From a bacterium (GTDB lineage: Bacteria > Patescibacteriota > Minisyncoccia > Phycocordibacterales > UBA9973), in contig JAKAKW010000004.1 in NCBI GenBank assembly GCA_021824345.1, positions 11,019-75,018 of the forward strand: DNA of 64,000 nucleotides, read 5' to 3'. The translations under genes were made by a program, and so were the position numbers. Of this stretch, positions 3,129-56,145 are shown one piece after another. A model generated the notes under the pieces. It saw only the letters and a list, made by a program, of their open reading frames with translations. It was not told the origin of the DNA and did no database searches. Position 1 is the first letter of the stretch, and the number at the start of each line of letters is the position of its first letter.

Positions 3129-3134
3129 GTATGT

Positions 3135-3530: not shown

Positions 3531-4550
3531 ATGCACGGGAAAAACACTGAACGGTATTTTTTCTTCGGCCTGCTTGTGGCAACCGTCATTTTTACCTTTT
3601 TCATCTTCCAGCCCTTCTGGATAGTAATTGTCCTGGGCGCGTGCTTTGCGGTGGTCCTGCGGCCGGTTTACGAGATGTTCCGAAAAGTAAAGTTTCCGTC
3701 CTGGCTCTCTTCGCTCCTGACTGTAATTCTTTTTACCATACTGATTTGCGGACCGCTTTTCGGCCTATCCGTAATCATTTTCAACCAGTCCCAAAGCCTG
3801 TACAGCAGCCTGGTGCACGGCGGAGGAGCTTCTTTCCTAGATTCATTGAATCGCTCTATTCAGGAAGTCTTGCCGCATGGAGTAAATCTTGATTTGAACC
3901 AGAAAGCGAACGATCTTGTGGGAGTATTGTCCAATAATCTGGGAGAAATATTCAGTACCACCCTTTCCACCATTTTCTCGTTTATCCTCACCCTGCTCGC
4001 CGTTTTTTACTTTTTGAAAGACGGGGCGGAATGGAAAAGGTCCATTGTAAACTTAAGCCCCCTTTCGGACTCGGACAACCTTAAAATAATAGACAAGCTT
4101 TCACATGCCATAAAGGGAGTGATTCTTGGGTATCTTTTCGTAGCCGCGGTGCAAGGCACCCTCATGGGAATCGGTTTGACTATTTTCGGAGTTCCCAGCC
4201 CCGCCTTGTGGGGAGTTGTGGCGGCAATCGGATCCCTTACCCCCACCCTGGGTACCGCCATAGTTTCCATTCCCGCCGTAATTTATCTTCTGGCCACAGG
4301 GCACCCGGCCATGGCCATAGGGCTGGCCATCTGGTCCACTATCATAGTCGGAACCATAGACAACCTGCTGAACCCGTACATCGTGGGAAATCGCATCAAT
4401 ATTCCGCCATTCCTTATATTATTCTCGGTTCTGGGCGGAGCGGCCCTCCTCGGGCCGGTAGGCATTCTGATCGGCCCGCTTTCCGTAAGCTTGCTCTACA
4501 TACTTGTTTCCATTTATCGAGACGAGTTTCAAAAACAAAATGCCGATTAA
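3531..4550 (+). CDS. AI-2E family transporter (PerM/UPF0118-like)
   Basis: The listed long ORF (3177-4550) overlaps rplU on the opposite strand, so it is trimmed to ATG 3531 (MHGKNTERYFF). About 8 TM segments and a C-terminal G/P-rich 'GVPSPALWGVVAAIGSLTPTLGTAIVSIPAVIY' region typical of AI-2E proteins. Confidence 0.6.
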   Translation: MHGKNTERYFFFGLLVATVIFTFFIFQPFWIVIVLGACFAVVLRPVYEMFRKVKFPSWLSSLLTVILFTILICGPLFGLSVIIFNQSQSLYSSLVHGGGASFLDSLNRSIQEVLPHGVNLDLNQKANDLVGVLSNNLGEIFSTTLSTIFSFILTLLAVFYFLKDGAEWKRSIVNLSPLSDSDNLKIIDKLSHAIKGVILGYLFVAAVQGTLMGIGLTIFGVPSPALWGVVAAIGSLTPTLGTAIVSIPAVIYLLATGHPAMAIGLAIWSTIIVGTIDNLLNPYIVGNRINIPPFLILFSVLGGAALLGPVGILIGPLSVSLLYILVSIYRDEFQKQNAD

Positions 4551-9393: not shown

Positions 9394-9401
9394 ATAATCT
9401 T

Positions 9402-9410
9402 ATTTTACCA
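9402..9410 (-). promoter_or_regulatory. Extended -10 element TGGTAAAAT, 8 nt upstream of the ATPase copy-1 ATG (candidate leaderless promoter)
   Basis: The minus strand reads ...TGGTAAAATaagattatATG. The same TGGTAAAGT box sits at the same spacing before two family-gene starts (14737-14745 and 33613-33621). Confidence 0.4.
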
Positions 9411-9430
9411 TTATTCCCATTATTTTTATA

Positions 9431-9453
9431 GGGCGGAGGGTTACCCTCAGCCC
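9431..9453. repeat. Palindromic hairpin repeat family 2 (GGGCGGAGGGTTACCCTCAGCCC) between array A and ATPase copy 1
   Basis: Inverted repeat GGGCGGAGGG/CCCTC(A)GCCC. Related copies lie at 14765, 33641, 44638 and 54594/54625. Confidence 0.7.
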
Positions 9454-9492
9454 TTACCTTTCTACCTCAAAGTCTGCTTAGTTTTGCCGAAA

Positions 9493-12981: not shown

Positions 12982-14730
12982 TTAATACACCTCCTTGTTG
13001 TAACAATCCTCGCAGTATACGGTTTCGGGGCGGTCGGGGGCGAATGCGGTATCAAATTCGTTCAAACATTTGCCAGCGTGGCTGTGGACGGCTTTCTGGC
13101 ACATGCAAGAACGGTGCCAGAGCTTCATGGGATTGCGTTTGGCAAGGCGCGCTTCGTGCCGGCAGAAGAAGCATAGATGCGGGAGCGGAACACCGAGTTT
13201 TTTATACAGCTTCAGTTCCCCGTCGGTTATCTTGAATGCCCCGCGGCAACGCCCGCCGGAATTATTCCGATTCGCGCATCCTATTACTTCGGAAAGAATC
13301 GAATCCCGCACATCGCCCAATCTGTCCGGCAGATCTTTCGCCTCAATGGTGAGGGAATACTCGTTCTGCTTTTTGTCCCGCCACCTGTACCCCCTCGAGA
13401 GAGCCTCCTCCTTGGTCAAAGGAAAATAATCCTGGGCCTGGGTTTCGTTATAACAGAATGGAGAAAGTTCCGCCGGGAAGAATTCGCCGTACTTGTATGT
13501 CAAACCATTCCTGTCCACATAAGGCATATTCATCATATGCTCTTTGATTTTTGGAACCAACGCTTCATACTCCTCCTTTGAATATTCCTTGTTTAAAATG
13601 CAATGCTTCTTATTCCTTATTCCAATACAGCCGAATAAATCGGAACAGCCGTGGCAATTGAACGAATATTCCACGTTATTTGAGCTGTACACCACGCTGG
13701 TGAATAAGTTGCGGTAATTTCCAATGCCGGTATCAAATGCTTCATACGCCAGCTCTGCGTCCCCCAGACCCGGTCCAATATCGTAGCCGTCTTTTACCAC
13801 ATGGGCCACCCAATGCGCGAACTTGCAGTCTTCTATGTTGCCATTTCCGTCAAAAATAATATGGCAATTTTTTACCCCGTCCAAATTATCTCCGGTGGAA
13901 TTTATACTCCTAATCTGGTTTGCAAATCTATTGACGGCTCCGAGTACAAGCTTGTCAAATTTTTCTTTTAATTTTGAAATTTCGGCATAGCTTGTGAGAT
14001 CGATTTCAGACAAGCGCTTAGTGTATTCTTCCTTGCTTAATGGTTCATTCCACATGCAATATGATTTGTTGCGCTGGTTTGTACAGCCCAAACAATTGGT
14101 ACAGCCATGGCAATCGTAAAGAAAATATGAATCCACGCAGGCCTTGCATTTCATGGAATACATAAGGCGATAGCAGTCTTCGCAAAACATATCCTCGTAA
14201 CAGAGTTCTGATTTGTGAGTCACATAAGTGTCTGAGCAGTCTTTGGTCTCGGAGATGCGATTGGAATAGAAAGTACGCTCAATTTTCCATGACCCGGAAG
14301 ACATGTAGCTTTCTCTTGAATCCTCCGCCACATTGCAGTAATCGCTGTTTACGGCATGGATGTTAGAAAGAGCCTGTTGGGGAAAATCCCTATATAACTC
14401 GCTCCATTGCTGAAAAAATGGTTTTGAAAAATCATAGTCCCGCCCGTAAGAAAGTTGGTCCCAATTGTCGCTCCACCAATAACTTGAATCATATGTTTTC
14501 AGCTTTTCATCCGGCGGATACATGCTGATTATGTCCTCGTCGTGCCCCGGCGCGTCACATTTGCGCCTGAAAAGAGACATTTCGTTGCGCCAGCTTATGC
14601 GTCGAACAGTACGGCAATCGGGGCAAAAAGTCGGCGGGGGCACGCCGATTTTCTTGTAGAAATTAAAATCCTCCGGCTCAATAGCGAAGCTCTGCTTGCA
14701 ATTCTGGCATTGCCGGGTTTCGGATTGCAT
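12982..14730 (-). CDS. Cysteine-rich multi-zinc-ribbon family protein, array A copy 3
   Basis: 582 aa with 'MQSETRQCQNCKQSFAIEPEDFNFYKKIGVPPPTFCPDCR'. Its C-terminus is nucleotide-identical over about 115 bp to copy 1. Confidence 0.85.
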   Translation of the reverse strand: MQSETRQCQNCKQSFAIEPEDFNFYKKIGVPPPTFCPDCRTVRRISWRNEMSLFRRKCDAPGHDEDIISMYPPDEKLKTYDSSYWWSDNWDQLSYGRDYDFSKPFFQQWSELYRDFPQQALSNIHAVNSDYCNVAEDSRESYMSSGSWKIERTFYSNRISETKDCSDTYVTHKSELCYEDMFCEDCYRLMYSMKCKACVDSYFLYDCHGCTNCLGCTNQRNKSYCMWNEPLSKEEYTKRLSEIDLTSYAEISKLKEKFDKLVLGAVNRFANQIRSINSTGDNLDGVKNCHIIFDGNGNIEDCKFAHWVAHVVKDGYDIGPGLGDAELAYEAFDTGIGNYRNLFTSVVYSSNNVEYSFNCHGCSDLFGCIGIRNKKHCILNKEYSKEEYEALVPKIKEHMMNMPYVDRNGLTYKYGEFFPAELSPFCYNETQAQDYFPLTKEEALSRGYRWRDKKQNEYSLTIEAKDLPDRLGDVRDSILSEVIGCANRNNSGGRCRGAFKITDGELKLYKKLGVPLPHLCFFCRHEARLAKRNPMKLWHRSCMCQKAVHSHAGKCLNEFDTAFAPDRPETVYCEDCYNKEVY

Positions 14731-14736
14731 ATATAA

Positions 14737-14745
14737 ACTTTACCA
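14737..14745 (-). promoter_or_regulatory. Extended -10 box TGGTAAAGT, 6 nt upstream of the copy-3 ATG (internal, leaderless-type promoter)
   Basis: The minus strand reads GGGCGGAGGGATACCCTCCGCCC-TAGAATTTTTACGCAAACG-TGGTAAAGT-TTATAT-ATG. The same cassette repeats upstream of array B at 33613-33663. Confidence 0.45.
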
Positions 14746-14764
14746 CGTTTGCGTAAAAATTCTA

Positions 14765-14787
14765 GGGCGGAGGGTATCCCTCCGCCC
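14765..14787. repeat. Palindromic hairpin repeat family 2 (GGGCGGAGGGTATCCCTCCGCCC) in the only sizeable intergenic gap of array A; on the minus strand it is followed by a T5 run (terminator-like)
   Basis: Perfect 10-bp stem. On the transcribed (minus) strand it is followed by TAGAATTTTTACG. Confidence 0.7.
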
Positions 14788-14834
14788 TCCCTCGGCCCTT
14801 CTCCGCCTTGGCTTCCAAATTAAAACCATTGCCG

Positions 14835-16577
14835 CTAATATACTTCTTTCTGATAGCAAGATTCGCAATACACTGTCTCCGGTTTATCGGGCGCATAGCT
14901 GGTTTCAAATTCATTTGGGCATTTGTCTCGGTGTCCGTGATTGGATTTTTCGCACATGCAAGAACGGCTCCAAAGCTTCATGGGATTGCGCTTGGCAAGC
15001 CTGCCGTAATGCCGGCAATTTGAACACAGGCGCGGAAGAGGCAAGCCGAGTCTGCGGTAAAATCCCAGCTCGTCCGGAATAATGCGAAACGCTTCGGTGC
15101 ACTGTTCGTTACATTTTCCTTTGTGCGCGCACTCAACAGACTTGTTTAATATATCGTCTTTTACATCGCTTATATCGTCCGGCAATTCCTCATTTTTTAT
15201 TTCAATTTCGTAGTTTTTCGATTCTTTTTCTTTCCATCCGTATCCCCTTTCCCGCGCCTCCTCTTGAGTCAAAGGGAAGTATTCTTGGGCAATGGTTTCG
15301 TTATATGCCCAGGGAGAAATTTCCATCGGGAAAAAATCGCCGTAGACATAAGCCCTGCCTTTCGCGTCAATATACGGCTTTTCCGCCATTTGCTTCACGA
15401 TTTCATCCTTTAGTTTGTTGTACTCCTCTTTTGTATATTGCTTGTTTAATATGCAGTATTCTTTTCCGCGCAATCCTATGCAACCGAACAAGTTCGAAGA
15501 TGCCTGACAAGAAAAACAATACGCGCAATTGTTGGAACTATAGGTGGTAATGATGGCAAGATCGTTCATTCCCACGTCGGTATCCACTCCTTCGTAGCAC
15601 AGCTCGGTTTTGTAATTGCCGTAAACGTCATAATTTTCCTTGATAAAAAGCGAATGAGCGGAAAATCGGCAATTTTCCGCCTCGTCTGATATATCAAAGC
15701 AATTATGGGAATTTTTGGATTTGGTAATGTTATGTCCCGTGCAATTCTCGCATTTTACGATGTTGGCATAGCGGCGAATGGCTTTTCCGCGTATTTCACT
15801 TTCATATTTTTCTCTTATTTTTTCTCTGTTTGCATAGCTGGATAGTTTCAAAGATTTTAGTTTGTTTTCATAATCATCTTTAGTCAGCTGTTCATTGAAA
15901 TAACAATATGACTTGCTGACCAGATTAGAACAGGCAAAGCAGTTATTGCAATTTCGGCATCCGTATAGATACGAAGAATTCACGCAAGAGGTGCAGCTTT
16001 CGCTCCCCATCACGCTGAAACATTCTTGGCAATCCAGAATATCGTAGCAGAGTTCATTGTGAGGAGAAGTAAGCATATCTTGAGAATCTTTTGAAAAATT
16101 GCTTCGGTTCGAATACCGTACGTTTTCGTCATATCCGCACCCGAACACGAGATAGCAATTCTTGTTACCGTCCACATAATTCGTGTATTGAGAGTTCACG
16201 GAATTGATGGTTTGGAGGGCCGGCAAGGGCGTTTTCTTCCACAACTTGTCATATTGCTCAAAGAAAGGTCTGGACGGGTCATATTCAATGCCGTAATCAG
16301 TCGGATCCCATTTGTCGCTCCACCAGTACTCCTTATCATACACAGTGTAGGGAGAATCCGGCGCGTACATGCTTAGCATCTCCTCGCTTCTGCCGGGCGC
16401 ATTGTTTTTTCTTTTATACAGCGACCGTTCATTCCGGAAAGCCATCCTCCTGACAATTCTGCATTCCGGACACCACGTCGGCGCCGGCACCTTTATGCGC
16501 TCGTAAAACCCGAAATCATCCGGCTCTATGACGAAGTCCTTTTTGCAATTTTGACATTGCCAGGTTTCGGATTGCAT
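14835..16577 (-). CDS. Cysteine-rich multi-zinc-ribbon family protein, array A copy 4
   Basis: 580 aa: 'MQSETWQCQNCKKDFVIEPDDFGFYERIKVPAPTWCPECR', 'CRNCNNCFACSNLVSKSYCYFNEQLTKDDY', 'CAYCFSCQASSNLFGCIGLRGKEYCILNKQYTKEEY', C-terminal '...YCESCYQKEVY'. Confidence 0.85.
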   Translation of the reverse strand: MQSETWQCQNCKKDFVIEPDDFGFYERIKVPAPTWCPECRIVRRMAFRNERSLYKRKNNAPGRSEEMLSMYAPDSPYTVYDKEYWWSDKWDPTDYGIEYDPSRPFFEQYDKLWKKTPLPALQTINSVNSQYTNYVDGNKNCYLVFGCGYDENVRYSNRSNFSKDSQDMLTSPHNELCYDILDCQECFSVMGSESCTSCVNSSYLYGCRNCNNCFACSNLVSKSYCYFNEQLTKDDYENKLKSLKLSSYANREKIREKYESEIRGKAIRRYANIVKCENCTGHNITKSKNSHNCFDISDEAENCRFSAHSLFIKENYDVYGNYKTELCYEGVDTDVGMNDLAIITTYSSNNCAYCFSCQASSNLFGCIGLRGKEYCILNKQYTKEEYNKLKDEIVKQMAEKPYIDAKGRAYVYGDFFPMEISPWAYNETIAQEYFPLTQEEARERGYGWKEKESKNYEIEIKNEELPDDISDVKDDILNKSVECAHKGKCNEQCTEAFRIIPDELGFYRRLGLPLPRLCSNCRHYGRLAKRNPMKLWSRSCMCEKSNHGHRDKCPNEFETSYAPDKPETVYCESCYQKEVY

Positions 16578-16589: not shown

Positions 16590-18296
16590 CTATAATACTT
16601 CTTTTATATAGCACTTGCTACAAAATATTCTTGGAGCGTCTTCCTTCCGGTAATGAGTTCTGAATATTACTCCGCAATTATCACACGATCTTTCCCCTAG
16701 CGTCATTTGCCACGCCCATCTTTTTATCTTTTCATCAATCCTGCAAAACGGACAACGCCGAGGCAATGGCAAATTGTGTTTCTTTAAAAATTGAATCTCC
16801 TGGTGGATTATCTTAAATCCCCGACTGCATGTAGCACATTGTATGGATTCTTCAGTTATATTTTCAGGCGCATCCTTAGAATTATCCGGCAAATCGCCTG
16901 ATTTCATAGTAATGGAATATTCCCTTGAATCAGGTTCCAGCCATGATAGATGCTTTTTAACTGTCTCCTCCTTTGATTTTGGAAAGAAAAGCGAAGCAAG
17001 GGTATCGTTATATGCGTGAGGAGACATGGTTATGGGAAAAAATTCCCCGTATCCATACTCTAAGCCATTCTCGCTTTTGTACGGCATTTCGGCCATCTGC
17101 TTAATTATTTTTTCCCTTATCTTAAAATATTCTTCTTTTGGATACTGCTTGTTTAATATGCAATATTTGCCGTTCCTTAAGCCCACGCACCCGAATAAAT
17201 CAGAGCCGCCAAAGCACAAGATTGTATAGTCCGAGGAATGCAATCCATGGCCTCCGTCCTGGCTGAATTTCACATTTTCTGTTTCAGAGCCGACAGTTAC
17301 GCATTCGTACATATTTTCTGCGGCTGTCCATCCATCCATATAGTCATATGAATTTTTCACTATTCCGTTTTTTATCAGCATTAGAAATTTAGAGTCCTCC
17401 GACAGTGTGACGTCGTAACATTCCCGGCAGTTTTTTGACTGGAAAACATAGTTGCCCGTGACGTTTTTGGAGAAATCGTCATAAATCGGGCGCGGCAGAT
17501 TTGATTTCCAGAAATCGCGCACTTTTTCTCGCATGGATTCGTAAGTGGAATATGAACCCAAATCTATTTCGCTTAATTTTTTCTCATACTCTTCTTTTGC
17601 AAGCTGTTCATTAAAAAAACAGTAGGACTTATTGCGCAAATTCACGCATCCAAAACAATTGTTGCAGTTGCGACAGTCTTTTATGAAATAGCAGTCCATA
17701 CAGCTGATAGTATTGCCCTCCGCGGTGAAAATGTTATAGCTTTTAAAACCATTCGTAACGTCAAACGTGTTTTCGCATTCCCAAGTCATGGAAGAATCAT
17801 ATATTCTTTTGCTTCTCTTTAAGAAGAAGCCGTAAGCCGTATCTTCGCACCCTTCGGTGAAAAATACGAGGTAGCAATTTTTGCACCATCCGGCAAAGTT
17901 GGTATATGGAGAAAGCTTGCGCGTAATCTGATCAATAGGCTGGGCTCTAAGAGGAACCTGTTCAAACAGTTTTGTAAATTGCTCAAAAAATGGCCTAGAG
18001 AAGTCGTATTCTATCGCATATTTTTTTGGATCCCATTTATCGCCCCACCAGCAATCATGGCAATAAATACGATATTTATTCTCCGGCGAGTACATGGAAA
18101 TGCCTTCCTCTCCGCATAAATCGCATTTGCGTTTGAAAAGTTTGGTGGATTTCATCCACACTAGGCGCCTTTGAAGACGACATCTCGGACAGAACGTCGG
18201 CGGAGGCACTTTGATTTTTTCGTAAAACCCGAAATCATCCGGCTCTATGACGAAGTCTTTCTTGCAGTTTTGGCATTGTTTGGTAGCGGATTCCAT
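16590..18296 (-). CDS. Cysteine-rich multi-zinc-ribbon family protein, array A copy 5
   Basis: The listed ORF extends to 18395; the conserved start MESATKQCQNC at 18296 lies 2 nt after the stop of copy 6. N-module with a second ribbon 'CDLCGEEGISMYSPENKYRIYCHDCWWGDKWD'; C-terminal 'CDNCGVIFRTHYRKEDAPRIFCSKCYIKEVL'. Confidence 0.8.
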   Translation of the reverse strand: MESATKQCQNCKKDFVIEPDDFGFYEKIKVPPPTFCPRCRLQRRLVWMKSTKLFKRKCDLCGEEGISMYSPENKYRIYCHDCWWGDKWDPKKYAIEYDFSRPFFEQFTKLFEQVPLRAQPIDQITRKLSPYTNFAGWCKNCYLVFFTEGCEDTAYGFFLKRSKRIYDSSMTWECENTFDVTNGFKSYNIFTAEGNTISCMDCYFIKDCRNCNNCFGCVNLRNKSYCFFNEQLAKEEYEKKLSEIDLGSYSTYESMREKVRDFWKSNLPRPIYDDFSKNVTGNYVFQSKNCRECYDVTLSEDSKFLMLIKNGIVKNSYDYMDGWTAAENMYECVTVGSETENVKFSQDGGHGLHSSDYTILCFGGSDLFGCVGLRNGKYCILNKQYPKEEYFKIREKIIKQMAEMPYKSENGLEYGYGEFFPITMSPHAYNDTLASLFFPKSKEETVKKHLSWLEPDSREYSITMKSGDLPDNSKDAPENITEESIQCATCSRGFKIIHQEIQFLKKHNLPLPRRCPFCRIDEKIKRWAWQMTLGERSCDNCGVIFRTHYRKEDAPRIFCSKCYIKEVL

Positions 18297-20009: not shown

Positions 20010-22241
20010 TCAAGAATCGAGCATTTTCCTTAATATGTCTTCCGGCACCTCTTTCACCTTTTTGGAATACGGCGGAACGGGAATCTCATTTTTTCCCGAA
20101 GTAGAGATTGTTTCGATATCGTTTTCCGGAGTTGATTCCGATCCGGGATCACTCTGTATCGGTTCATCTTTCTGTTCCGGTTGCGGTTCCTGTTCCGGCT
20201 CTGATTCTGGTTCTGGTTCTGGTTCCGACATATCAGGTTCCGCCGGAGAAACCGGTTCCAAAACATCCTTGGCGGGTTCCTCCTCTTTTTTCTCCGGCAT
20301 TGCTTCAAAAATCAAATCTTTAAGCTTATTCATATCTTCTGCGCTGGCTGCCCGATCTTCTTTTTTAGGCTTTTCAGCTTCAGCGGAATGCTTTTCCTCT
20401 TTAAGAGATTCAAGTGAAATTGGTTCCGGCCCAGGATCCTTTGGGCGCTCTTCGCTTTGAATTTTTTCTTCTTTTGGAACAGGTGGAATATTGTCATTCA
20501 AGGTCTTGTTCAGTATTTCTCTCAAAGCAGAGGTATCTCTTTCTTTTTTTGCCGGCGGTTCCTCCTTCTTTTGCTGAAACTTTTTTCCGTTCTGGTTTTT
20601 CTTAAAAACCGCCTTAAGCGAAGAAAAGCCGTTTGTTTTTTTGCCATTGTTCGGCACAGAGCTCGGCTCTTCCTTGAATTCTATTCCCAAATCCGCCAGA
20701 GGCTTGAAAAACCTTCCTTCATCTCGGCCGGAGCCGGTATTGGAGGAGCCGGACAAGGGCTTCAATTCCCCCGCTTTTATTTTGGCAATGCAATCCCGGC
20801 AATATATGGGCCTGCCGGGCTCGGGTCTGAAAGGCACCTTGGTCGGCTGTCCGCATATCGAGCACACCGCGTCAAACTTCTCCACTCCGGTAGTGGAACC
20901 GGAAGAGCTTGCGTCATCTTCTCCAAGAGACATTCCGCTCCAGTCATTTATCTCCTTTTCAACCGTATCGCGAGGACGGCAGTACAGTTCCCTGGACTTT
21001 CTTATGACCTCCGCTTCCGCTTCCGGATTTTCGCCTATTTTCACCATGGGCGGAAGCGTCCGGGCAGAAAACGGGCGGGAGGTGACTCCGTCTATCATCA
21101 GCTTGATGTATATCTTGTAGTTCGGGAGATTCACTATGTCCTCGGGGGTGAATTCCGGTTCAAATTCTTTTTCCAGAAATTCAGCGTCGTCCGCTCCCAC
21201 TCGAAACACGATCATGGTGCCGATGTTGCCGAAAATGGCGTCCCGAACCGAAGAGCTTTCCTTGGTGACAAGCTGGGCGGTGTATTGGTGCGCCACGGTA
21301 AGGTTTAAGCGATATTTTCGCGCTTCGGAAAGAATGCCGGCGAAGGCATCGGTAACGAAGTTTTGAAATTCGTCTACGTACAAATAAAAGTCCTTGCGTT
21401 CTTCCTCGGGTATGCGCACCCGTTCCATGGCGGCCAGCTGGATTTTGGTAATGATCATTCCGCCGAGAAGCGCGGAGTTGTCTTCGCCTATGCGACCCTT
21501 GGAAACGTTCACCAGGAAAATTTTCCCTTGGTTCATTAAGTCAAAAATATTGATGGTGCTCTTGGACTGCCCCACGATATTGCGGATGATAGAGGTGGAA
21601 AGAAATTGGCCGACTTTGTTTTGAATGGGAGCAATGGCTTCATTGCGGAACTTATCCTGCCACTCTTCGTACTCGTGCACCCAGAAAGCCTTAATGACCG
21701 GATCTTTCAGGTTGCTGATGATTTTTTGCCGATAGTCTTTGTCCACCAGCATCCTGGGAATGCCGAGCATGGTTGTGCCGGGAGTATCAAGAAGCGCGAG
21801 AATTGCATTGTTCAAAATGTATTCCATTCGGGCGCTCCAGGCGTTGGCCCAAATTTTTGTGAAAATGCCCATGAGGCCGGATGCCACCAGGTGCTTGTAT
21901 TTCGGATCAGGCAATTCCAAAACATTGAATCCGATGTGATACTCGGTGTCCGCCGGGTTGAAATACACCACATCTTTCAAGCGATGCTGGGGAATGGCGG
22001 AAAGCACCGCTTCCACGTTTTCCCCGTGCGGGTCCACCAAGCAGACGCCGTCGCCGTTCTTGATGTTCTGAATGATCATGTTGAACATGAGCACCGATTT
22101 ACCGGTGCCGGACTTTCCGAGAATATACACGTGCTGGCGCCTATCCTTCCGCTTTATGCCGAAGAGCTTGTTTTGGTCGCGAAAAGTGGTTTGGCCCAGG
22201 TATGTTAAATCCTTGTTATATGGGAGTTCCGTAGCGTCCAT
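20010..22241 (-). CDS. FtsK/HerA-superfamily P-loop ATPase, copy 2, with a C-terminal zinc-ribbon and acidic low-complexity extension
   Basis: Walker A 'ILGKSGTGKSVL' then 'LVDPHGEN'; Walker B 'FYLYVDEFQNF'. The roughly 330-aa C-terminal tail carries 'CSICGQPTKVPFRPEPGRPIYCRDCIAKI' and a 'PEPEPESEPEQEPQPEQ' stretch. Its stop lies 4 nt from the start of array copy 6. Confidence 0.6.
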   Translation of the reverse strand: MDATELPYNKDLTYLGQTTFRDQNKLFGIKRKDRRQHVYILGKSGTGKSVLMFNMIIQNIKNGDGVCLVDPHGENVEAVLSAIPQHRLKDVVYFNPADTEYHIGFNVLELPDPKYKHLVASGLMGIFTKIWANAWSARMEYILNNAILALLDTPGTTMLGIPRMLVDKDYRQKIISNLKDPVIKAFWVHEYEEWQDKFRNEAIAPIQNKVGQFLSTSIIRNIVGQSKSTINIFDLMNQGKIFLVNVSKGRIGEDNSALLGGMIITKIQLAAMERVRIPEEERKDFYLYVDEFQNFVTDAFAGILSEARKYRLNLTVAHQYTAQLVTKESSSVRDAIFGNIGTMIVFRVGADDAEFLEKEFEPEFTPEDIVNLPNYKIYIKLMIDGVTSRPFSARTLPPMVKIGENPEAEAEVIRKSRELYCRPRDTVEKEINDWSGMSLGEDDASSSGSTTGVEKFDAVCSICGQPTKVPFRPEPGRPIYCRDCIAKIKAGELKPLSGSSNTGSGRDEGRFFKPLADLGIEFKEEPSSVPNNGKKTNGFSSLKAVFKKNQNGKKFQQKKEEPPAKKERDTSALREILNKTLNDNIPPVPKEEKIQSEERPKDPGPEPISLESLKEEKHSAEAEKPKKEDRAASAEDMNKLKDLIFEAMPEKKEEEPAKDVLEPVSPAEPDMSEPEPEPESEPEQEPQPEQKDEPIQSDPGSESTPENDIETISTSGKNEIPVPPYSKKVKEVPEDILRKMLDS

Positions 22242-31950: not shown

Positions 31951-33606
31951 CTAATTTATATTCTGCTTGTAACACTCCTCGCAGGCAATGTTTTTGTATC
32001 CCCATTCGGGCGGGTAATATGCCATGATATCTTTCCGGCAGTAATGGCATTTATACGGAAAAGGGTGCAGAACGGTCAGGTATTTGAGCGCATTCCTGGT
32101 CCGCAGATCAAAATGCAGGCGCGGCAGAGGGATATTATTCTCTCTATGAAAAGAAAGTTCATTTTGGGCGATATTGAAACGCCAGCCGGTCTCCGGGCAG
32201 ACGAGCGGTTGGGTAATGATTGAATCTGGCGCGTCCTTGATATTGTCCGGCAATTCGCCGGCGGGCATGCCTTCCGCTTTTTCTGTGTTCGGATCTTCCC
32301 AATACCCGCCCAAAGCCAAGACATCTTCTTTTTTTGCTTCCGGAAAATACAATATGCTTGTGGAAAGGTTGAAAGGACCGGCGCTCATTGAATAGGGCAA
32401 GAATTGCCCGTATTCTCCCCGCTTTTTCATGTCAGACACTATTTCCATCCGGAGTTTTTCATATTCTTCTTTCTCATACTGTTTGTTCAGAATGCAATAT
32501 TTTTTCTTCTTCAGTCCTACGCAACCAAAACAATATTCGCATTCTATGCACAAGTCCAGATACTCGGAATACCTGGAGGATGACCAGTTGCTGTATTTCT
32601 GCGCATAAGCGTTAACGCAGCTGGCGCAATTGCCCAAGAGCTCGGAATACCAGCAACCATTCGCGTCAATGTCGGACTTGTGCCGAAGCCCGCGATTGCA
32701 GTTCCAAGAATCCTCAGAGTCGCTTATCGTGTTGCAATTATGGCAATTCTTCGTATCCATCAAGTAGTTTCCGTCGGAATCATATACCCTATAATTGAAA
32801 TTGGGCCGGTGCACCGCTTTGTCCTTGGCAATATTTTCAAATTTTTCCTTCAGCTTCTGTGCGGCGGAATACGAACCGAGATCGTATGATTCGAGTTTGG
32901 CCTCGTACTCTTCCTTGGAATATTGCACATTCTCTATGCAGTGCGTTTTTCCCCGAAGGTTCCAGCACATGAAGCAACTTTGGCAATTACGGCAATCGTA
33001 CAAAAAAGACGAATCAATGCAGTCTCGGCAGTGCCGAGAATAGAAAAGGCGGAAAGAATTGTAGCAGTCGCTCGAATCGTAGCATTTCTCCGAATCAAAC
33101 AGCACATGCACGTCTATGGAATTCCTGACCCGCAGGTTTCGATATGAATAATAAAGTTCTTCGCAATTTTCCATGGAGCGGGCCAGGTAACAGTTCTTTG
33201 AATTCCACACGTCGTCGCACCAGTCGCAATTCGTATTCTTGATCCCGTTCTGGTGCGGATGCGGCACTTTTTCCTGAAGTTCCTTAAGCTGATCAAAAAA
33301 AGGGCGGACGGGATCGTAATCCTGCCCGAATTCCATCGGATCCCATTTATCGCTGTACCATTCGGAAGTCTTGTAGATCGGGTACCGGCTATTTTCCGGC
33401 ATGACCGTGATCAGGCTTTCGCCGGACAAATCCGATTTCCCTTTTCGAAACCGGCCGAAGAGCCAGAACGAGAAATGTTGCTTCAGCCTGCAGTCGGAGC
33501 AAATGACCGGAATCTCAGTGCCGGTTTTTTCGTATAAAGCAAGTTCTCCAGGCTCTATGCTGAACTTTGACTTACAGTGCTCGCACGTGCGAGCTTCACT
33601 TTGCAT
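31951..33606 (-). CDS. Cysteine-rich multi-zinc-ribbon family protein, array B copy 5 (first gene of array B, divergent member)
   Basis: 551 aa: 'MQSEARTCEHCKSKFSIEPGELALYEKTGTEIPVICSDCR', 'CRNCQSCFMCWNLRGKTHCIENVQYSKEEY', 'CFGCVGLKKKKYCILNKQYEKEEY', C-terminal 'YKCHYCRKDIMAYYPPEWGYKNIACEECYKQNIN'. Confidence 0.8.
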   Translation of the reverse strand: MQSEARTCEHCKSKFSIEPGELALYEKTGTEIPVICSDCRLKQHFSFWLFGRFRKGKSDLSGESLITVMPENSRYPIYKTSEWYSDKWDPMEFGQDYDPVRPFFDQLKELQEKVPHPHQNGIKNTNCDWCDDVWNSKNCYLARSMENCEELYYSYRNLRVRNSIDVHVLFDSEKCYDSSDCYNSFRLFYSRHCRDCIDSSFLYDCRNCQSCFMCWNLRGKTHCIENVQYSKEEYEAKLESYDLGSYSAAQKLKEKFENIAKDKAVHRPNFNYRVYDSDGNYLMDTKNCHNCNTISDSEDSWNCNRGLRHKSDIDANGCWYSELLGNCASCVNAYAQKYSNWSSSRYSEYLDLCIECEYCFGCVGLKKKKYCILNKQYEKEEYEKLRMEIVSDMKKRGEYGQFLPYSMSAGPFNLSTSILYFPEAKKEDVLALGGYWEDPNTEKAEGMPAGELPDNIKDAPDSIITQPLVCPETGWRFNIAQNELSFHRENNIPLPRLHFDLRTRNALKYLTVLHPFPYKCHYCRKDIMAYYPPEWGYKNIACEECYKQNIN

Positions 33607-33612
33607 ACAATA

Positions 33613-33621
33613 ACTTTACCA
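33613..33621 (-). promoter_or_regulatory. Extended -10 box TGGTAAAGT, 6 nt upstream of the first array-B gene (leaderless-type promoter)
   Basis: The minus strand reads ...GGGCGGAGGGTACCCCTCCGCCC-TATATTTTTTACGCAAGTG-TGGTAAAGT-TATTGT-ATG, nearly identical to the cassette at 14737-14787. Confidence 0.45.
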
Positions 33622-33640
33622 CACTTGCGTAAAAAATATA

Positions 33641-33663
33641 GGGCGGAGGGGTACCCTCCGCCC
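33641..33663. repeat. Palindromic hairpin repeat family 2 (GGGCGGAGGGGTACCCTCCGCCC) between grpE and array B, followed by a partial extra half-copy
   Basis: 10-bp stem; on the minus strand it is followed by a T6 run, making it a plausible grpE terminator. Confidence 0.7.
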
Positions 33664-33683
33664 TACCTTCCGCCCTACAGGTT

Positions 33684-34289
33684 TTATTCTCCGCCCCCCG
33701 CTTCGTATTCAAACACGTTTACCCGGGCCGGGCGAAGAACTCGCTCGCCCAGTTTATAACCTTTTTGAATTACCTGCGCGATTTTATGGTCAAGATCCTT
33801 CTTGTCTGTCTTCATTGAATCCACGCTATGGTGTAAATTAGGATCAAAAGCGTCGCCGTCTTCTCCGAATTCCTTTACCCCGTATTCCTCAAAAACCGAA
33901 TTCATTTGCGAATGGATGTATTCCACTCCCTTGCGCCAATTTTCGTCCACCTTGTTCCAGGCATCTTTGTTGGCAAAAGCCATCTGAAAGCTGTCCATCA
34001 CTGACAAAAACCTGGTAAGAATCCTTTCCCGCACCGATTCGGAAAAACTGGCTCTGCGCATCTCCTCTTCTTTTTTGTAATTGGCGAAATCAGCCCGCTC
34101 TTTTTGCCAGCCTGTAAGGTATTCTTCTTTTTCCTTTTTGCAAATTTTGAGTTCCTCCCGAAGCTTTTTAACGGTCTTTTTCAGATCCTCTTCCCCGTCG
34201 GCATTATATTCAAATTCCAAGACCTCCGAATCGTCATTTTTCGGAAGCTCCGGCTCTTTATTTTCGTCTTTTTGCTCTTCGTCTTTCAT
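33684..34289 (-). CDS. grpE: Nucleotide exchange factor GrpE
   Basis: Coiled-coil N-terminus and C-terminal 'HHSVDSMKTDKKDLDHKIAQVIQKGYKLGERVLRPARVNVFE' (GrpE beta-sheet domain signature). Confidence 0.85.
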   Translation of the reverse strand: MKDEEQKDENKEPELPKNDDSEVLEFEYNADGEEDLKKTVKKLREELKICKKEKEEYLTGWQKERADFANYKKEEEMRRASFSESVRERILTRFLSVMDSFQMAFANKDAWNKVDENWRKGVEYIHSQMNSVFEEYGVKEFGEDGDAFDPNLHHSVDSMKTDKKDLDHKIAQVIQKGYKLGERVLRPARVNVFEYEAGGGE

Positions 34290-44637: not shown

Positions 44638-44661
44638 GCGGAGGGGCACCCTCCGCTTTTT
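44638..44661. terminator. Family-2-type hairpin GCGGAGGG-GCA-CCCTCCGC with a T5 run, between mnmA and the exonuclease gene
   Basis: 8-bp perfect stem followed by TTTTT, with an A/G-rich stretch on the other side. Confidence 0.55.
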
Positions 44662-45226
44662 ATAACTCCATTAGCTTCTTATAAAGTTCAAAGGTGGCCC
44701 TGGCGTCGGAAAGAGCAGTGTGAGCGTTCTTATTTTCAATGCCGAATTCTTCGCAAAGGCTGCGAAGGGAAAAATGATTAATGTCCTCCCGTCCGTGCAG
44801 CTTGGCAAAAGCGATGGAAATGGTGTCCAGCTTATGGTAATGCATTTTGTTTTCCACTCCGGCGGAGCGAAAGGCCTTTTCCAAAAACATGTAATCGAAA
44901 GCGATATTGTGGGAAACCATGATGGCATCCTTTGTCTTATTGGAAAGAATTTTCATGGCCTCCGGCAAGCTGTATGCGAATACCCAGTCGGCAGGGTCAT
45001 ACTTGTTTACCCGCAAAGACACCGGATCGGCGTCTTTAATCCGTTCCGGCTTTATCTTCAGTTCAAATTCTTCGGTTGTTTCAAAAACAGGATGTTCTTT
45101 TGTCCAATCCTGGCTTACTAGAACCACTCCGACAGAAATCAGTTCATGCCTGTCGGGATCCAGGCCGGTTGACTCGGTATCAATAAAAGCCAAGACATGC
45201 TTCTTCATATTATTGCATTGTACCAC
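44660..45226 (-). CDS. DEDDh 3'-5' exonuclease (DNA polymerase III epsilon-like)
   Basis: 'FIDTESTGLDP' (Exo I), 'MVSHNIAFDYMFL' (Exo II), 'HTALSDARAT' (Exo III). The true start may be MKKHVLAF at 45208. Confidence 0.8.
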   Translation of the reverse strand: MVQCNNMKKHVLAFIDTESTGLDPDRHELISVGVVLVSQDWTKEHPVFETTEEFELKIKPERIKDADPVSLRVNKYDPADWVFAYSLPEAMKILSNKTKDAIMVSHNIAFDYMFLEKAFRSAGVENKMHYHKLDTISIAFAKLHGREDINHFSLRSLCEEFGIENKNAHTALSDARATFELYKKLMEL

Positions 45227-47691: not shown

Positions 47692-47722
47692 AAAAAGTGG
47701 GAGGCAAGGCCTCCCACTTTTT
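47692..47722. repeat. Palindromic hairpin repeat family 1 (GTGGGAGGCAAGGCCTCCCAC) flanked by an A5 run and a T5 run: bidirectional terminator between the convergent 3' ends of the preceding and following features (the 46196-47623 membrane protein and the 47767-48807 HTH gene)
   Basis: The same 21-mer appears in inverted form twice within recR (1523-1566). Confidence 0.7.
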
Positions 47723-47766: not shown

Positions 47767-48807
47767 TTACGCCAAAGAATAAAGCCCCGCCTTCGTCCGC
47801 TTGAAATATTTTGAATTCACCAGATTTACCAAAATAGTGTTCCGTTTGAAATAGCGCTCTTTCATTACCCGTTCTATTATGTCTTCCTTGGAAAGAGGGC
47901 CTTCTTTCTTTAAGATGTCGCGTATAACTTCCCGGGCAATGCCGGCCTTGTATCCCCATTCAGCCAGAGCATACAGCCCTCTGCCCACCAATACGAATCG
48001 GGGGTCCTTGATCAATTCATTGTGGCAAGTGGCATAATGAGTCTTCTTTCCGAACTGCTTGGTAATGGCATCCGCCACTTCACGAAAATGCATAGGCGAA
48101 CCGTGCTTGCGCATAATGAGGTACGCGTAATCCTTCACTCCGCGGGTGCGGATATTGTGCGAAGTATATTTTCCCCATTCGCCCAGCGGATTCTTGGCTA
48201 TGGTCTTGGATATCGCGAGCCATCTCTTGGCGATTTCCTCATCGCGGTAACTGTCGGAAATATCCTTCATGCGTTCCAGGAATTTTTTTACCATCTCGCT
48301 TTCGGGAATAATATCTTCGTCATTCAAACTGGCATAAAGATTCTTCAGAGCCTCGTGCACCTTGTCCGCCATTTTGTCGTCCACGCTCCAGCGCGACTTG
48401 AAATGGTGATCTTCGGAATGTTTTTTAAAGTAGTCTCCAAGCTCCAAGAAAAACTGGACGTGGTTCTGCACCGACTTGTCCTTGGAAATATGATGCAGAA
48501 GATCGTGCTCCGAAACAATGGCTCCCAGGGAATGGATAAGCTCTTTCAGTTCATCAAAAACCTCCACTTCCTCTTTGAAAGCGTCGGATTTCTTTATCAT
48601 ATTCAAAGCCACATTCTCTATTTGGCGCACCCGCTCCCGGGTAATCCCGTATTTTTTCCCTATCTCTTCAAGAGTTTTCTTTTTGGCATCTGAAGTCAGG
48701 CCGTAACGATTCAAGATTACGTCCTTAACGCGATCTCCCAGATGTGAAGTTATTTTCTTTGTAACTTGCTTGGGTTTGAAAGATATATTTGACATAAAAT
48801 TGCTCAA
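47767..48807 (-). CDS. DNA-binding protein with an N-terminal sigma-70 region-4-type HTH and a C-terminal HARE-HTH-like winged helix
   Basis: 'LNRYGLTSDAKKKTLEEIGKKYGITRERVRQIENVALNMI' has the classic region 4.2 pattern. C-terminal 'PRFVLVGRGLYALAEWGY' resembles the HARE-HTH motif (G.YgL.eW). Confidence 0.5.
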   Translation of the reverse strand: MSNFMSNISFKPKQVTKKITSHLGDRVKDVILNRYGLTSDAKKKTLEEIGKKYGITRERVRQIENVALNMIKKSDAFKEEVEVFDELKELIHSLGAIVSEHDLLHHISKDKSVQNHVQFFLELGDYFKKHSEDHHFKSRWSVDDKMADKVHEALKNLYASLNDEDIIPESEMVKKFLERMKDISDSYRDEEIAKRWLAISKTIAKNPLGEWGKYTSHNIRTRGVKDYAYLIMRKHGSPMHFREVADAITKQFGKKTHYATCHNELIKDPRFVLVGRGLYALAEWGYKAGIAREVIRDILKKEGPLSKEDIIERVMKERYFKRNTILVNLVNSKYFKRTKAGLYSLA

Positions 48808-53689: not shown

Positions 53690-54466
53690 TTATATGTTTT
53701 GTATCGAATTAAGGACGCTATTCACCGCCGAAAGAGGAACAAATCCGGCCCCGGGAAAAGCAAAACCGATAACTTCCCCGTTTAAATCCAAGACTATCGA
53801 ATCCCCGAAGCTTCCCGCTTGTCCGAAACCGTCGGCGCCCATATCCAGGCTGGGGCTTCCGTTATATATGAAAGAAGAAATATTATCCCCCAAAAGCACT
53901 ATTTTTTGTCCGGCTTTCAAGCTGCTCAAATCAGCTTGTTTCATCTTTGGAAAAGAAAGCTTGTCCGTTCCATTTACCGGCGCCCCTATTTTCAAAAGAG
54001 AAAATTTGTTCTGGCCGCTGGGAATGAAACTTGCCGTAAATTTTCCGCTCTGGTTTTCCACGAAATATGTTCCGTCACTGGGCACCTCTGAAGCGTTTGC
54101 CGCTATTATTCCCTTGTCCGACACTGCGAATCCGTCTCCGAGTCTCGTTTCAATAATTTTTCCGTCAGCGCCGGACGTTCCCATGCTGATGGAAAACATT
54201 TCCGGCTTGTTGTCCGCCACGGCGCTTACCACCAAGTCTTCCTCCTTTACCACTACGGTATTGACCACCGGCTTCCCGTCCTGCGGCACTATTTTGTCCA
54301 CCGTCTCTCTCACTACCCGGTTTATGGGAACCGTAACCGACTGCGGGGCCTGCTGCATCAGAGTGACGGTGGTAATACCCGTGGCCAGCGAGGTCACAAA
54401 CGACAGAAGAAGCGCCAGGAGTATCAGCTGGGATCTGCTTAAATCTTTTATGTCCATTGGGGTCAA
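53690..54466 (-). CDS. Membrane-anchored trypsin-like (HtrA/S1C-like) domain protein, possibly catalytically degenerate
   Basis: N-terminal TM. 'GFAVSDKGIIAANASEV' and 'GSFGDSIVLDLNGEVIGFAF' resemble HtrA 'GSGF...TNAHV' and 'GNSGGPL.N..GEVIGIN', but the GNSGG serine box reads GSFGDS. The opposite-strand ORF 53673-54512 was rejected. Confidence 0.45.
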   Translation of the reverse strand: MTPMDIKDLSRSQLILLALLLSFVTSLATGITTVTLMQQAPQSVTVPINRVVRETVDKIVPQDGKPVVNTVVVKEEDLVVSAVADNKPEMFSISMGTSGADGKIIETRLGDGFAVSDKGIIAANASEVPSDGTYFVENQSGKFTASFIPSGQNKFSLLKIGAPVNGTDKLSFPKMKQADLSSLKAGQKIVLLGDNISSFIYNGSPSLDMGADGFGQAGSFGDSIVLDLNGEVIGFAFPGAGFVPLSAVNSVLNSIQNI

Positions 54467-55665
54467 TTATACCACTTTTTCAGTTTTTTCAAAACTTCTG
54501 AAACCGCTTTAAAGGCATAATCAACTTCTCCTTTTTTTACTCCGGGTCCGAAGGAAAAACGCAGGGATCCCATATTGGCCGCACCGGCAGTATGAGCGGA
54601 GGGTAACCCTCCGCCTCTTTTAACGAGCGGAGGGTTACCCTCCGCTTTGCGTATCGCCCGGATCACGTGCGACGCTTTTTTATCGCCCGATTTGCAAGCG
54701 CTCTTCTCCGAAACCATTACTCCGCGTTCGGATAGCTCTATCACCATAAGATCGCTCGGCATATTCGGAAAAGTGACATTTAAATTGTTCGGCAATCTGT
54801 TTTCAATGCTTCCGTTCACTATTACGTCCTTTCCGAGAATATCTTTCGCGGATTTGGCGATTCCGCGCAGAAAATAATCGCGAAGGCCTGCGATCCGCTT
54901 CGCCTCTTTTTTCGATCTGCCTCGCGCGGACTCAAGAGCCTTCGCAAACTTTGATATTTCAAAAAGGTTCTCCGTTCCCGGACGCAAGCCGTGCTCTTGC
55001 CCGCCCCCGCCAAAAACCGGAGAAAGAGGCGTTGATTTTCTCTTAAAAAGAACTCCAATTCGCCCGGCTCCGGAAATCTTTGCTCCGGAAACGGTCATCA
55101 TGTCCACGCCGAGGCGTTCCACATTCAAATCCAAATAGTTTGCAGCCTGCACTGCATCCGTATGAAAATACGGAAGAAGGCTTTTTTCACGCTTGCGCCA
55201 ATGCCTTATTTCCTTGGCGATTTCCCGGATAGGCTCCACTGTGCCTATTTCATTGTTTGCATACATGACTGAGACGAGAACGGTGTTTTTTTTGATCGCT
55301 TTCTTCACTTTTTTCGGATCTATCCTTCCATCCGCCTCCGCCGGAACGACTGAAACCTCCGCTAACTTTCTTTTCTTCAACATATCGGCGGTCTCAAGCA
55401 CGGAAGGATGCTCAATATTCGTGGTAACGATATGCGGCATCTTTTTGGAAAAAGCCAATACTGCCCCCTGTACCGCCAGATTATTGCTTTCGGTTCCTCC
55501 GCTCGTGAATATTATTTCTTCCTCCCTCGCCCCCAAAATACCCGCCGTAATTTTCCTGGCTTTCTTCAGTTTCTTCTTCGCTTCACTGCCGGCCTCATGA
55601 ATGGAACTCGGATTCGGTTCGGCGGAGGAAGCGTAATCCATATATATTTTCCTTGATTTGGGCAT
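54463..55665 (-). CDS. Cysteine desulfurase (IscS/NifS-like class V aminotransferase) carrying an in-frame double palindromic-repeat insertion
   Basis: 'IYMDYASSAEPNP', 'FTSGGTESNNLAV', 'SGAKISGAGRIG' (PLP-Lys region) and C-terminal '...LRFSFG'. Start chosen at MPKSRKIY (the listed ORF extends to 55707). Confidence 0.85.
   Translation of the reverse strand: MPKSRKIYMDYASSAEPNPSSIHEAGSEAKKKLKKARKITAGILGAREEEIIFTSGGTESNNLAVQGAVLAFSKKMPHIVTTNIEHPSVLETADMLKKRKLAEVSVVPAEADGRIDPKKVKKAIKKNTVLVSVMYANNEIGTVEPIREIAKEIRHWRKREKSLLPYFHTDAVQAANYLDLNVERLGVDMMTVSGAKISGAGRIGVLFKRKSTPLSPVFGGGGQEHGLRPGTENLFEISKFAKALESARGRSKKEAKRIAGLRDYFLRGIAKSAKDILGKDVIVNGSIENRLPNNLNVTFPNMPSDLMVIELSERGVMVSEKSACKSGDKKASHVIRAIRKAEGNPPLVKRGGGLPSAHTAGAANMGSLRFSFGPGVKKGEVDYAFKAVSEVLKKLKKWYN
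54594..54645. repeat. Two direct copies (31-bp period) of hairpin repeat family 2 (GAGCGGAGGGTAACCCTCCGC and GAGCGGAGGGTTACCCTCCGC) inside the cysteine desulfurase reading frame
   Basis: On the coding strand they translate in frame as 'AEGNPPLVKRGGGLPSAH', lying between the conserved 'SHVIRA' and 'SLRFSFG' segments, where canonical IscS/NifS has only a short loop. Confidence 0.85.
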
Positions 55666-55689
55666 GGAAATAGTATATATTGAACCAGC

Positions 55690-56145
55690 ATGAATACAAA
55701 ACTCCAAATCGTTCTTTTCGCCGTTCTTGCCCTGATAATTCTTCTGGAGACCGGCTGGATGATAAAGACGGAAAAGCGCCTGAAGCGGATTTTCCTTGGA
55801 AAGAAAGGAAAAGATTTAGAAGAATCGATTGAAGACATGCAAAGAAAGATTTCCGTTCTTGAAGAAGCGAAGAAAAATCTAGAAAAAGAAACCGGGACGA
55901 TCAACGCGAAGTTGAAGAAAAGCATCCGAGGGCTAGAGACCGTGCGCTTCACTCCTTTTCGGGGCGAAGGCGGCAATCAAAGTTTTGCCATCGGCATGTT
56001 GGACGAAGAAGGAGACGGAGTGGTTATTTCCAGCCTGTATTCCCGCGAACGTATGAGCGTGTTCGCCAAGCCCGTAAAAAAGGGGCGCGCGGAATATGAA
56101 TTGACAGCGGAAGAAAAAGAAGCGCTGGAAAAAGCGAAAGTGTAG
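55690..56145 (+). CDS. DUF4446-like protein (N-terminal TM, coiled coil, conserved C-terminal domain)
   Basis: 'VRFTPFRGEGGNQSFAIGMLDEEGDGVVISSLYSRERMSVFAKPV' resembles the DUF4446 core from memory. Confidence 0.35.
   Translation: MNTKLQIVLFAVLALIILLETGWMIKTEKRLKRIFLGKKGKDLEESIEDMQRKISVLEEAKKNLEKETGTINAKLKKSIRGLETVRFTPFRGEGGNQSFAIGMLDEEGDGVVISSLYSRERMSVFAKPVKKGRAEYELTAEEKEALEKAKV

Follow-up and report, generated by a model that had tools for sequence, protein, structure and literature searches.

A REPIN-like pair of inverted palindromes, in frame within a cysteine desulfurase gene of a Patescibacteria genome

How does a pair of GC-rich palindromes come to lie in the coding sequence of a cysteine desulfurase, and what allows it to stay there? 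The question arises in a 64,000-nucleotide stretch of a Patescibacteria genome, called the window below, where GCGGAGGGTWACCCTCCGC is present twice (54596-54614 and 54627-54645) within a cysteine desulfurase gene on the minus strand (54463-55707).

Anatomy of the insert and of its host

Each of the two copies is an odd-length palindrome of 19 nt in which the central base alone is asymmetric, an A in one copy and a T in the other. Copy 1, GCGGAGGGTAACCCTCCGC (54596-54614), has an 8-bp stem and a 3-nt loop and folds as single-stranded DNA into a hairpin of -9.9 kcal/mol (computed fold). It is followed by a 12-nt centre, CTCTTTTAACGA on the plus strand (54615-54626), and by copy 2, GCGGAGGGTTACCCTCCGC (54627-54645), which is the reverse complement of copy 1. 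The repeats can also be read as GAGCGGAGGGTAACCCTCCGC at 54594-54614 and GAGCGGAGGGTTACCCTCCGC at 54625-54645, with a period of 31 bp. The initial annotation had reported a repeat occurring twice, 31 bp apart, in the desulfurase, together with its translation, all of which the sequence and the ORF translation confirm. It had also described two direct copies. In fact, with A against T at the centre, the copies are inverted rather than direct repeats, an orientation that within the window hangs on this one base. Together they build a REPIN-like nested palindrome (54595-54646) with 20-nt arms, each a palindrome in itself, around the 12-nt centre. Folding this interval as RNA, a check proposed in the initial annotation, gives a single, stable long hairpin (MFE -57.5 kcal/mol, z -7.0); as single-stranded DNA it reaches -27.5 kcal/mol (z -9.9). 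On the coding strand the insert lies between CGCAAA and TCATAC, flanks without a common direct repeat, and this missing target-site duplication fits the RAYT/Y1 transposase class.

The host gene is an IscS/NifS-type cysteine desulfurase, with the aminotransferase class V fold, the conserved PLP lysine and the catalytic cysteine of that type. Its 414-aa ORF matches Pfam Aminotran_5 at 2.8e-52, its best PDB matches (down to 3.6e-62) are IscS/NifS-type cysteine desulfurases, and every residue invariant across 110 orthologues is kept, K210 and C338 included. In the PDB alignments the match runs out at about residue 353, directly ahead of the insert. Translation and orthologue alignment assign codons A355-A371, AEGNPPLVKRGGGLPSA (54595-54645, minus strand), to the repeat pair: the insert is in frame, contains no stop codon and would add 17 residues, and the translation around it reads ...SHVIRAIRKAEGNPPLVKRGGGLPSAHTAGAANMGSLRFSFG..., as in the initial annotation. 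An AlphaFold2 model of the protein has a mean pLDDT of 84; in it the insert falls between helix 347-355 and strand 382-385 and residues 363-377 score below 50, so that the insert is predicted to form a disordered loop.

We aligned 120 orthologues over the segment that runs from the catalytic-cysteine motif to just past the LRFSxG strand (query residues 333-396). These are true orthologues, since the order IF2, DUF4446, desulfurase, hypothetical gene and ClpB is conserved around them. The segment measures 42-46 aa in about 70% of the 120 sequences against 64 aa here, and none of the 120 carries the identical 18-aa segment, a finding that leaves standing the initial view of this stretch as an insert. 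That view had also placed the insert between SHVIRA and SLRFSFG, in what is normally a short loop. The loop is indeed short in about 70% of the orthologues, but it is not uniformly so: insertions recur at four hot spots in the desulfurase orthologues, this loop being one of them, and other lineages have palindromic inserts of their own at the same codon. Several other insert families each recur at more than one of the four hot spots. The nearest desulfurase is 62% identical, too distant to bracket the age of the insertion. The names of the homologues point to Patescibacteria as the group of the organism, among Paceibacteria or Nomurabacteria-like lineages.

A repeat family in the window and in relatives

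We searched the window for the stem of the desulfurase pair as GCGGAGGG-N3-6-CCCTCCGC (family 2), with 100 shuffles as a control. There are five exact matches against 0.00 expected, and six at up to three mismatches against 0.01 expected (9433, 14767, 33643, 44638, 54596 and 54627). The last two are the desulfurase pair, and the four single copies are all intergenic, between minus-strand ORFs. The copy at 9433-9451, with one stem mismatch, lies between an ORF ending at 9493 and an ORF starting at 9393; that at 14765-14787 has an 11-bp stem; that at 33641-33663 lies downstream of grpE; and that at 44638-44656 lies 3 nt past the stop of an exonuclease gene (44660-45226). Identical public contigs extended the window by 9.8 kb past its 3' end and by 8.2 kb before its 5' end, and revealed a seventh copy, again intergenic, 6 kb upstream of the window in this genome. 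The initial annotation had seen the same hairpin between genes at 9431, 14765, 33641 and 44638, where the pattern search finds it too, and over these 82 kb the repeat census that it called for yields six copies in the window, against 0.01 expected, and one more in the 18 kb of flanks. All the extending contigs are 100% identical, and among them no strain variation was seen. The same sequence occurs in GCA_027428315.1 as well as in assemblies from ENA and Logan; as these assemblies are independent (NCBI, ENA and Logan) and identical, we rejected an assembly artefact.

A second stem with the same design occurs in the window as family 1, of which there are three copies where shuffling predicts none. 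Two of them form an in-frame inverted pair on the plus strand (1523-1566) within RecR (1044-1775), laid out as GTGGGAGGC-CTT-GCCTCCCAC gg GTGGGAGGC-AAG-GCCTCCCAC and encoding KWEALPPTGGRQGLP; the alignment of this protein with the PDB RecR 3vdp shows a 17-aa gap exactly at the pair. The two loops, CTT and AAG, make the inverted orientation unambiguous here and so back the inverted reading of the desulfurase pair. The third copy (47696-47718) is single. It follows a sigma-factor gene (47767-48807), with an A-run on one side and a T-run on the other; it resembles a terminator in either direction and is the strongest such site of its region. Thus, in the window, both doublets are intragenic and all single copies are intergenic.

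Three of these single copies (14765-14787, 33641-33663 and 47696-47718) combine a GC-rich stem with a T-run directly after a stop codon. They coincide with the top terminator-like sites of the minus strand (14788-14764, 33666-33638 and 47726-47688), which is the coding strand of the upstream genes, and by their shape they look like intrinsic terminators. The earlier suggestion that the intergenic copies serve as terminators or spacers therefore holds in part: the copies at 14767 and 33643 are terminator-like on the minus strand, and those at 9433 and 44638 are not among the terminator-like sites listed. About 70 nt of DNA are common to the neighbourhoods of the copies at 9433, 14767 and 33643. 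A segmental duplication carrying these three was considered and rejected, for the genes downstream of them are non-paralogous or only 33% identical.

Doublets of this kind are not confined to the window. Scanning one genome per species for pairs of CGGARG-N5-CYTCCG yielded at least 119 loci. Matches in GC-rich genomes (Streptomyces, Burkholderia and similar) were set aside, being for the most part direct repeats in coding sequence that lack palindromic units. The low-GC genomes, mostly Patescibacteria of several classes, hold 50 pairs with truly palindromic units, 38 of them inverted, 11 direct and one ambiguous among the matches listed, a preponderance that again backs the inverted reading of the desulfurase pair. 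Among the same matches, 31 of the 50 nested doublets sit well within ORFs of 150 aa or more, and others also lie between genes. Pfam confirms TopA, AtpG, LigA, GAPDH, MiaA, Fmt, TsaD, UvrC, ThrRS and an ABC transporter as hosts, their domain matches spanning the insert or flanking it on both sides; IleRS is a further host, and one desulfurase gene (L001) was hit twice. The doublet of another desulfurase (L002), GCGGAAGCCTTGCTTCCGC-N-GCGGAAGCAAGGCTTCCGC, recurs identically, centre included, in an ABC transporter gene (L094), and its REP is also found in frame in TopA (L046, L091), AtpG (L009) and GAPDH (L072). As identical doublets occur in unrelated genes, the element moves between unrelated genes.

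The same codons can be occupied by different elements. Three desulfurase orthologues from another clade (L001, L002 and L007; proteins about 80% identical) carry an inverted pair of their own at one codon, two residues past a conserved 'AI'. The arms are GCGGAGGCAATGCCTCCGC and GCGGAGGCATTGCCTCCGC around the centre tagtaa in L001, GCGGAAGCCTTGCTTCCGC and GCGGAAGCAAGGCTTCCGC around taatta in L002, and GCGGAGGAATTGCCTCCGC and CGGAGGCAATTCCTCCG around gagttca in L007. The flanks are common to all three (CATTCT before and AGA after the insert), and the arms are perfect yet different (GGAGGC, GGAAGC and GGAGGAATTG). In the closest relative of the window's desulfurase (L004) the same loop contains an unrelated hairpin, its stem 15 bp long, and two further orthologues (L005 and L006) have decayed remnants there; in the smallest clade that contains the insert-bearing desulfurase genes, 8 of 22 sequences have the insert. 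In fact, perfect doublets with differing inner sequences at one codon are found in orthologues 71-85% identical of TopA (four genomes), AtpG (three), GAPDH (two), MiaA (two) and the desulfurase (three), and one AtpG doublet (L093) is a chimera whose two REPs belong to different families.

Transposase genes and the origin of the doublets

What could move such an element? By motif scan and tblastn, 8 of about 50 doublet loci among the matches listed have a Y1/HUH transposase gene within 8 kb (L018, L022, L023, L028, L053, L094, L097 and L101). The encoded proteins, of about 220-230 aa, contain the HUH (NHxHxL) and Tyr (YxHxNP) motifs and score above the Pfam Y1_Tnp gathering score. Their best NCBIfam model is that of the REP-associated tyrosine transposase, NF047646, at 46 and 36 bits, which is below its equivalog cut-off of 80; the IS200 model scores them far lower, at 17 bits. 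At six of the eight loci the locus's own palindrome flanks the transposase on both sides within 9-54 bp; one of the remaining two is flanked on the sole side that the contig covers and the other is unflanked. A metagenome scan with the window's own stem as a pair (GCGGAGGG...CCCTCCGC) returned only two overlapping contigs (L127/L128), and there a RAYT-like gene is flanked by this pair together with two more copies, and has GCGGAGGGGAACCCTCCGC, with exactly the window's 8-bp stem, on both sides. Its protein is 50% identical to that of L097 and matches Pfam Y1_Tnp at 4e-9. Palindrome-flanked Y1 genes are the defining REP-RAYT arrangement, and it is in these relatives and in the metagenome that the putative RAYT genes display it. 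No RAYT gene was found in 82 kb of the present genome, made up of the 64-kb window (motif scan, tblastn) and 18 kb of flanks; the relatives suggest that this organism would have one.

We think that the desulfurase feature is probably a REP doublet of the REPIN type, mobile through a RAYT-type enzyme, roughly neutral and tolerated in a disordered loop. The two inverted 19-nt palindromes would then be one doublet of a GC-rich repeat family scattered through this Patescibacteria genome. A RAYT-type Y1 (HUH) transposase, to judge from IS200/IS605 and RAYT enzymes, would recognise the hairpins in single-stranded DNA and cut and paste them without target duplication. One doublet may have landed in the desulfurase loop between the helix that follows the catalytic cysteine and the next strand; with the frame kept and no stop codon introduced, translation would continue across it and add 17 residues, small or flexible, that leave the invariant residues intact, and the doublet would persist since it is nearly harmless and not since the enzyme needs it. 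Single intergenic copies would come to rest just past stop codons, in the shape of intrinsic terminators. For this genome we infer that a RAYT mobilises these repeats and that the insert, besides being translated, is neutral. The original notion of one small repeat family tolerated as a coding insert thus held up, with the amendment that the family is of the REP/REPIN type and that relatives carry palindrome-flanked RAYT-like genes. Against the REP doublet reading stand the different perfect doublets at one codon in orthologues, which simple insertion and decay does not predict, as well as the lack of a RAYT in the 82 kb, the RAYT-like scores below the equivalog cut-off and the absence of the GTAG/CGTC tag.

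A different idea is that the doublet is actively maintained and maybe co-opted: it could, for instance, be a site of dsRNA processing or stability, make translation pause, or be a DNA site rewritten in place by a RAYT. A perfect palindrome would then be kept at one codon in diverged orthologues, with a sequence that tracks the REP variant current in each genome. Diverged orthologues of the desulfurase, TopA, AtpG, GAPDH and MiaA do hold perfect palindromes of different sequence at the same codon, the chimeric L093 doublet is what copy-by-copy replacement predicts, and the long hairpin is very stable. Yet the insert is patchy, being present in 8 of 22 sequences of the smallest insert-bearing desulfurase clade and missing from about 70% of orthologues; the host genes are functionally unrelated, some inserts in the same loop have decayed (L005, L006), and repeated insertion by or into an earlier REP would yield the same picture with no function involved. 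We therefore consider active maintenance unlikely. Two accounts fit the differing doublets at one codon, repeated REP insertion into or beside old ones and in-place rewriting or homogenisation, and the data do not separate them. We can tentatively envision, as an idea on which we would not count, that the intragenic doublets of Patescibacteria are long-lived residents of fixed housekeeping codons whose arms are kept palindromic and rewritten copy-wise to the resident REP variant. If so, there would be in-place replacement or homogenisation driven by a RAYT, or selection on the hairpin itself, and a mobile population living mostly within the coding sequence of some of the smallest bacterial genomes.

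Could the doublets have arisen without a transposase, by template-switching, hairpin-primed inverted duplication or gene conversion that mirrors terminator stems into coding DNA? Many doublets are perfectly palindromic with their centres included (TAATTA, CCAGCTGG, GAAGCTTC, TTTAAA), a signature of fold-back synthesis; the single copies of the window are all intergenic and terminator-like while both doublets are in genes, and no RAYT was seen in the 82 kb. Such an origin is nevertheless quite improbable in our judgement, given that the L002 desulfurase and L094 ABC transporter doublets are identical, centre included, in different genomes, that doublets occur between genes too, that palindrome-flanked RAYT-like genes lie near 8 of about 50 doublet loci among the matches listed, and that the sole metagenome matches to the window stem flank a RAYT. 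It is more improbable still, to the point where we give it hardly any credence, that the 17 extra residues are adaptive, for instance as a partner-binding loop, with the nucleotide palindrome incidental. The residues in the frame used are mild (Ala, Glu, Gly, Pro, Leu, Ser, Lys), and the AEALLP...GSKASA frame recurs across hosts, but purifying selection acting on random insertions would leave just such a frame bias; the exact nucleotide palindrome is common to non-coding copies, the same peptide turns up in unrelated enzymes, the loop is modelled as disordered and most orthologues do without the insert.

With the REP doublet reading, a puzzling coding insert is explained by a known mechanism, and REP/RAYT-type elements exist in Patescibacteria. 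Lying mostly inside essential genes, they are a notable burden on genomes of about 1 Mb. Their inserts lengthen CPR proteins and break local alignments, and they are a possible source of error in annotation, phylogeny and structure prediction. The differing REP variants at one site in orthologues offer a concrete handle on the turnover of REP populations.

Comparison with known systems

REP/REPIN-RAYT systems have reportedly been described in E. coli and Pseudomonas, in work attributed to Nunvar in 2010 and to Bertels and Rainey in 2011. Like them, the elements studied here are dispersed short GC-rich palindromes, frequently paired in inverted orientation to form a single long hairpin, with a palindrome-flanked Y1/HUH gene (here in relatives), no target duplication and single copies just downstream of genes. 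They differ in being smaller (REPs of 17-23 nt, doublets of 40-52 nt), in RAYT-like proteins of about 220-230 aa that score under the NCBIfam equivalog cut-off, in their Patescibacteria host and in the location of the doublets, which among the matches listed are mostly in genes (31 of 50) and not between them. RAYTs and REPtrons are described in PMC3733652 and PMC5581495. Taken literally, a REP is extragenic, and both doublets of the window lie within ORFs; exceptions to the extragenic location are documented (PMC3733652). The GTAG/CGTC tag of most described REP families (PMC3733652) was absent from the flanks read, and the L028 copies have xTAC at their 5' end. In the literature searched we found no report of a REP or RAYT from CPR/Patescibacteria.

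Small GC-rich hairpins are also known from other AT-rich compact genomes: the GC clusters and double-hairpin elements of fungal mitochondria sometimes lie in frame in protein genes. These are organellar and, to our knowledge, have no HUH transposase partner, so that their likeness to the desulfurase doublet is one of analogy only. Unlike intrinsic terminators, the single copies share their stem with intragenic copies and with the repeats flanking the RAYT of another organism, which is not expected of terminators that arose independently. Several other classes were rejected: a MITE, for there is no target-site duplication and the arms are themselves hairpins, which is atypical of TIRs; CRISPR, as there are just two repeats, set 12 nt apart within a gene; an RNA intron of the bulge-helix-bulge type, as the hairpin has no bulges and the frame is kept in all sampled cases; and a DGR target hairpin, as the hosts are housekeeping genes and template repeats are absent.

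Intragenic REPs have been described by Di Nocera et al. (2013) in Opitutus terrae, in Thioalkalivibrio and, as RPE-4 and RPE-6, in Rickettsia conorii, where these two families are equated with intragenic REPs (PMC3733652). More than half of those intragenic REPs are dimers encoding 20-30 aa, many lie in replication and repair genes and in tRNA synthetase genes, and some genes were hit twice (PMC3733652). The hosts found here are similar (RecR, UvrC, LigA, TopA, ThrRS and IleRS), and the desulfurase of L001 was likewise hit twice; the sequence families and the taxa are others, and orthologous sites here hold different REP variants. A further relative in kind is RPE-1 of Rickettsia (Ogata et al. 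2000, as cited in PMC3733652). Like RPE-1, the doublets are palindromic selfish DNA in frame in housekeeping genes of a reduced genome, where they add a surface peptide. RPE-1 elements measure about 100-150 bp and belong to a family specific to Rickettsiales, and we know of no RAYT partner for them. The Patescibacteria elements, at about 50 bp and in another host, have no sequence kinship with Rickettsia palindromic elements; they work similarly and are not RPEs. Thus, intragenic REP dimers were already known, and the present ones differ in their smaller size, their lack of the GTAG/CGTC tag and their occurrence in Patescibacteria.

In-frame REP pairs in other genes and other genomes

The desulfurase is not the only gene of the window to hold REPs, the short GC-rich palindromes that pair, mostly inverted, into doublets. 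A second REP family, with the stem GTGGGAGGC-N3-GCCTCCCAC, forms an inverted pair at 1523-1566, in frame within RecR (1044-1775, plus strand), where it accounts for a 17-aa insert relative to RecR in the PDB. A lone copy of the same family lies at 47696-47718, 3' of a sigma-factor gene, as a hairpin that is terminator-like in both directions.

Further doublets were found in loci from other genomes (coordinates are those of each locus). A second site of the L001 cysteine desulfurase gene carries an in-frame inverted pair, AACAGGC-AAG/CTT-GCCTGTT (676-721), and the ClpB gene of L002 carries another, TCCGCC-AGA/TTT-GGCGGA (13986-14019); the stems of these two pairs differ from those of the others. 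In L093, the doublet in AtpG (1111-1149) is chimeric: its two REPs, CGGAAGTCCGACTTCCG and CGGAAGCAAGGCTTCCG, belong to different families.

Aligned cysteine desulfurase orthologues (P0002-P0120) show four recurrent insertion hot spots, at consensus positions of about 78, 170, 281 and 346-349. Several further families of insert, among them FFRSSVPGVPIPARPFK, LHGLAGVGDPGNRGPGKKIF, PLSLIRRGVGERC and QHPLLNKERVGE, each occur at more than one site across different genomes, and the two that were examined as DNA are imperfect hairpins.

Single copies and their shared flank

Single copies of family 2, the REP family of the desulfurase pair, have about 45 nt past the hairpin in common at 14717-14842 and 33593-33691, and also at 9380-9500. 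This flank, CCCTAnAnTTTTTACGCAAnnGTGGTAAAGTT, is followed by an ATG some 7 nt further on, an arrangement that resembles an extended -10 element coupled to a near-leaderless start. Because the genes downstream are only 33% identical, what is repeated may extend beyond the REP itself.

Ten tandem paralogues of 550-612 aa occupy the minus strand at 9493-33606. They share 31-49% pairwise identity and have no Pfam match; two genes for VirD4/TraG-like coupling ATPases (7942-9393 and 20010-22241) are interspersed with them.

RAYT-like genes and other candidate elements

RAYT-like ORFs, Y1 transposase genes closest to REP-associated tyrosine transposases, themselves hold a REP copy in L028 (2440-2456), L053 (5933-5949), L094 (2274-2290) and L101 (5902-5918). 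Each copy lies in a variable region ahead of the HUH motif; that of L028 is read through in frame as YGGRSSA.

In L007, 52-bp inverted repeats of three consecutive hairpins apiece (16077-16128 and 17933-17984) bracket a 1.8-kb segment with small HTH genes, and together these may constitute a separate mobile or invertible element. Directly past the 3' end of the window, in a contig of the same genome (L129), precomputed Pfam marks place an intein-splicing domain in GyrA (1899-5540) and a LAGLIDADG-like ORF at 14906-15646, which indicates, at the level of domain matches, that this genome carries additional in-frame selfish insertions.
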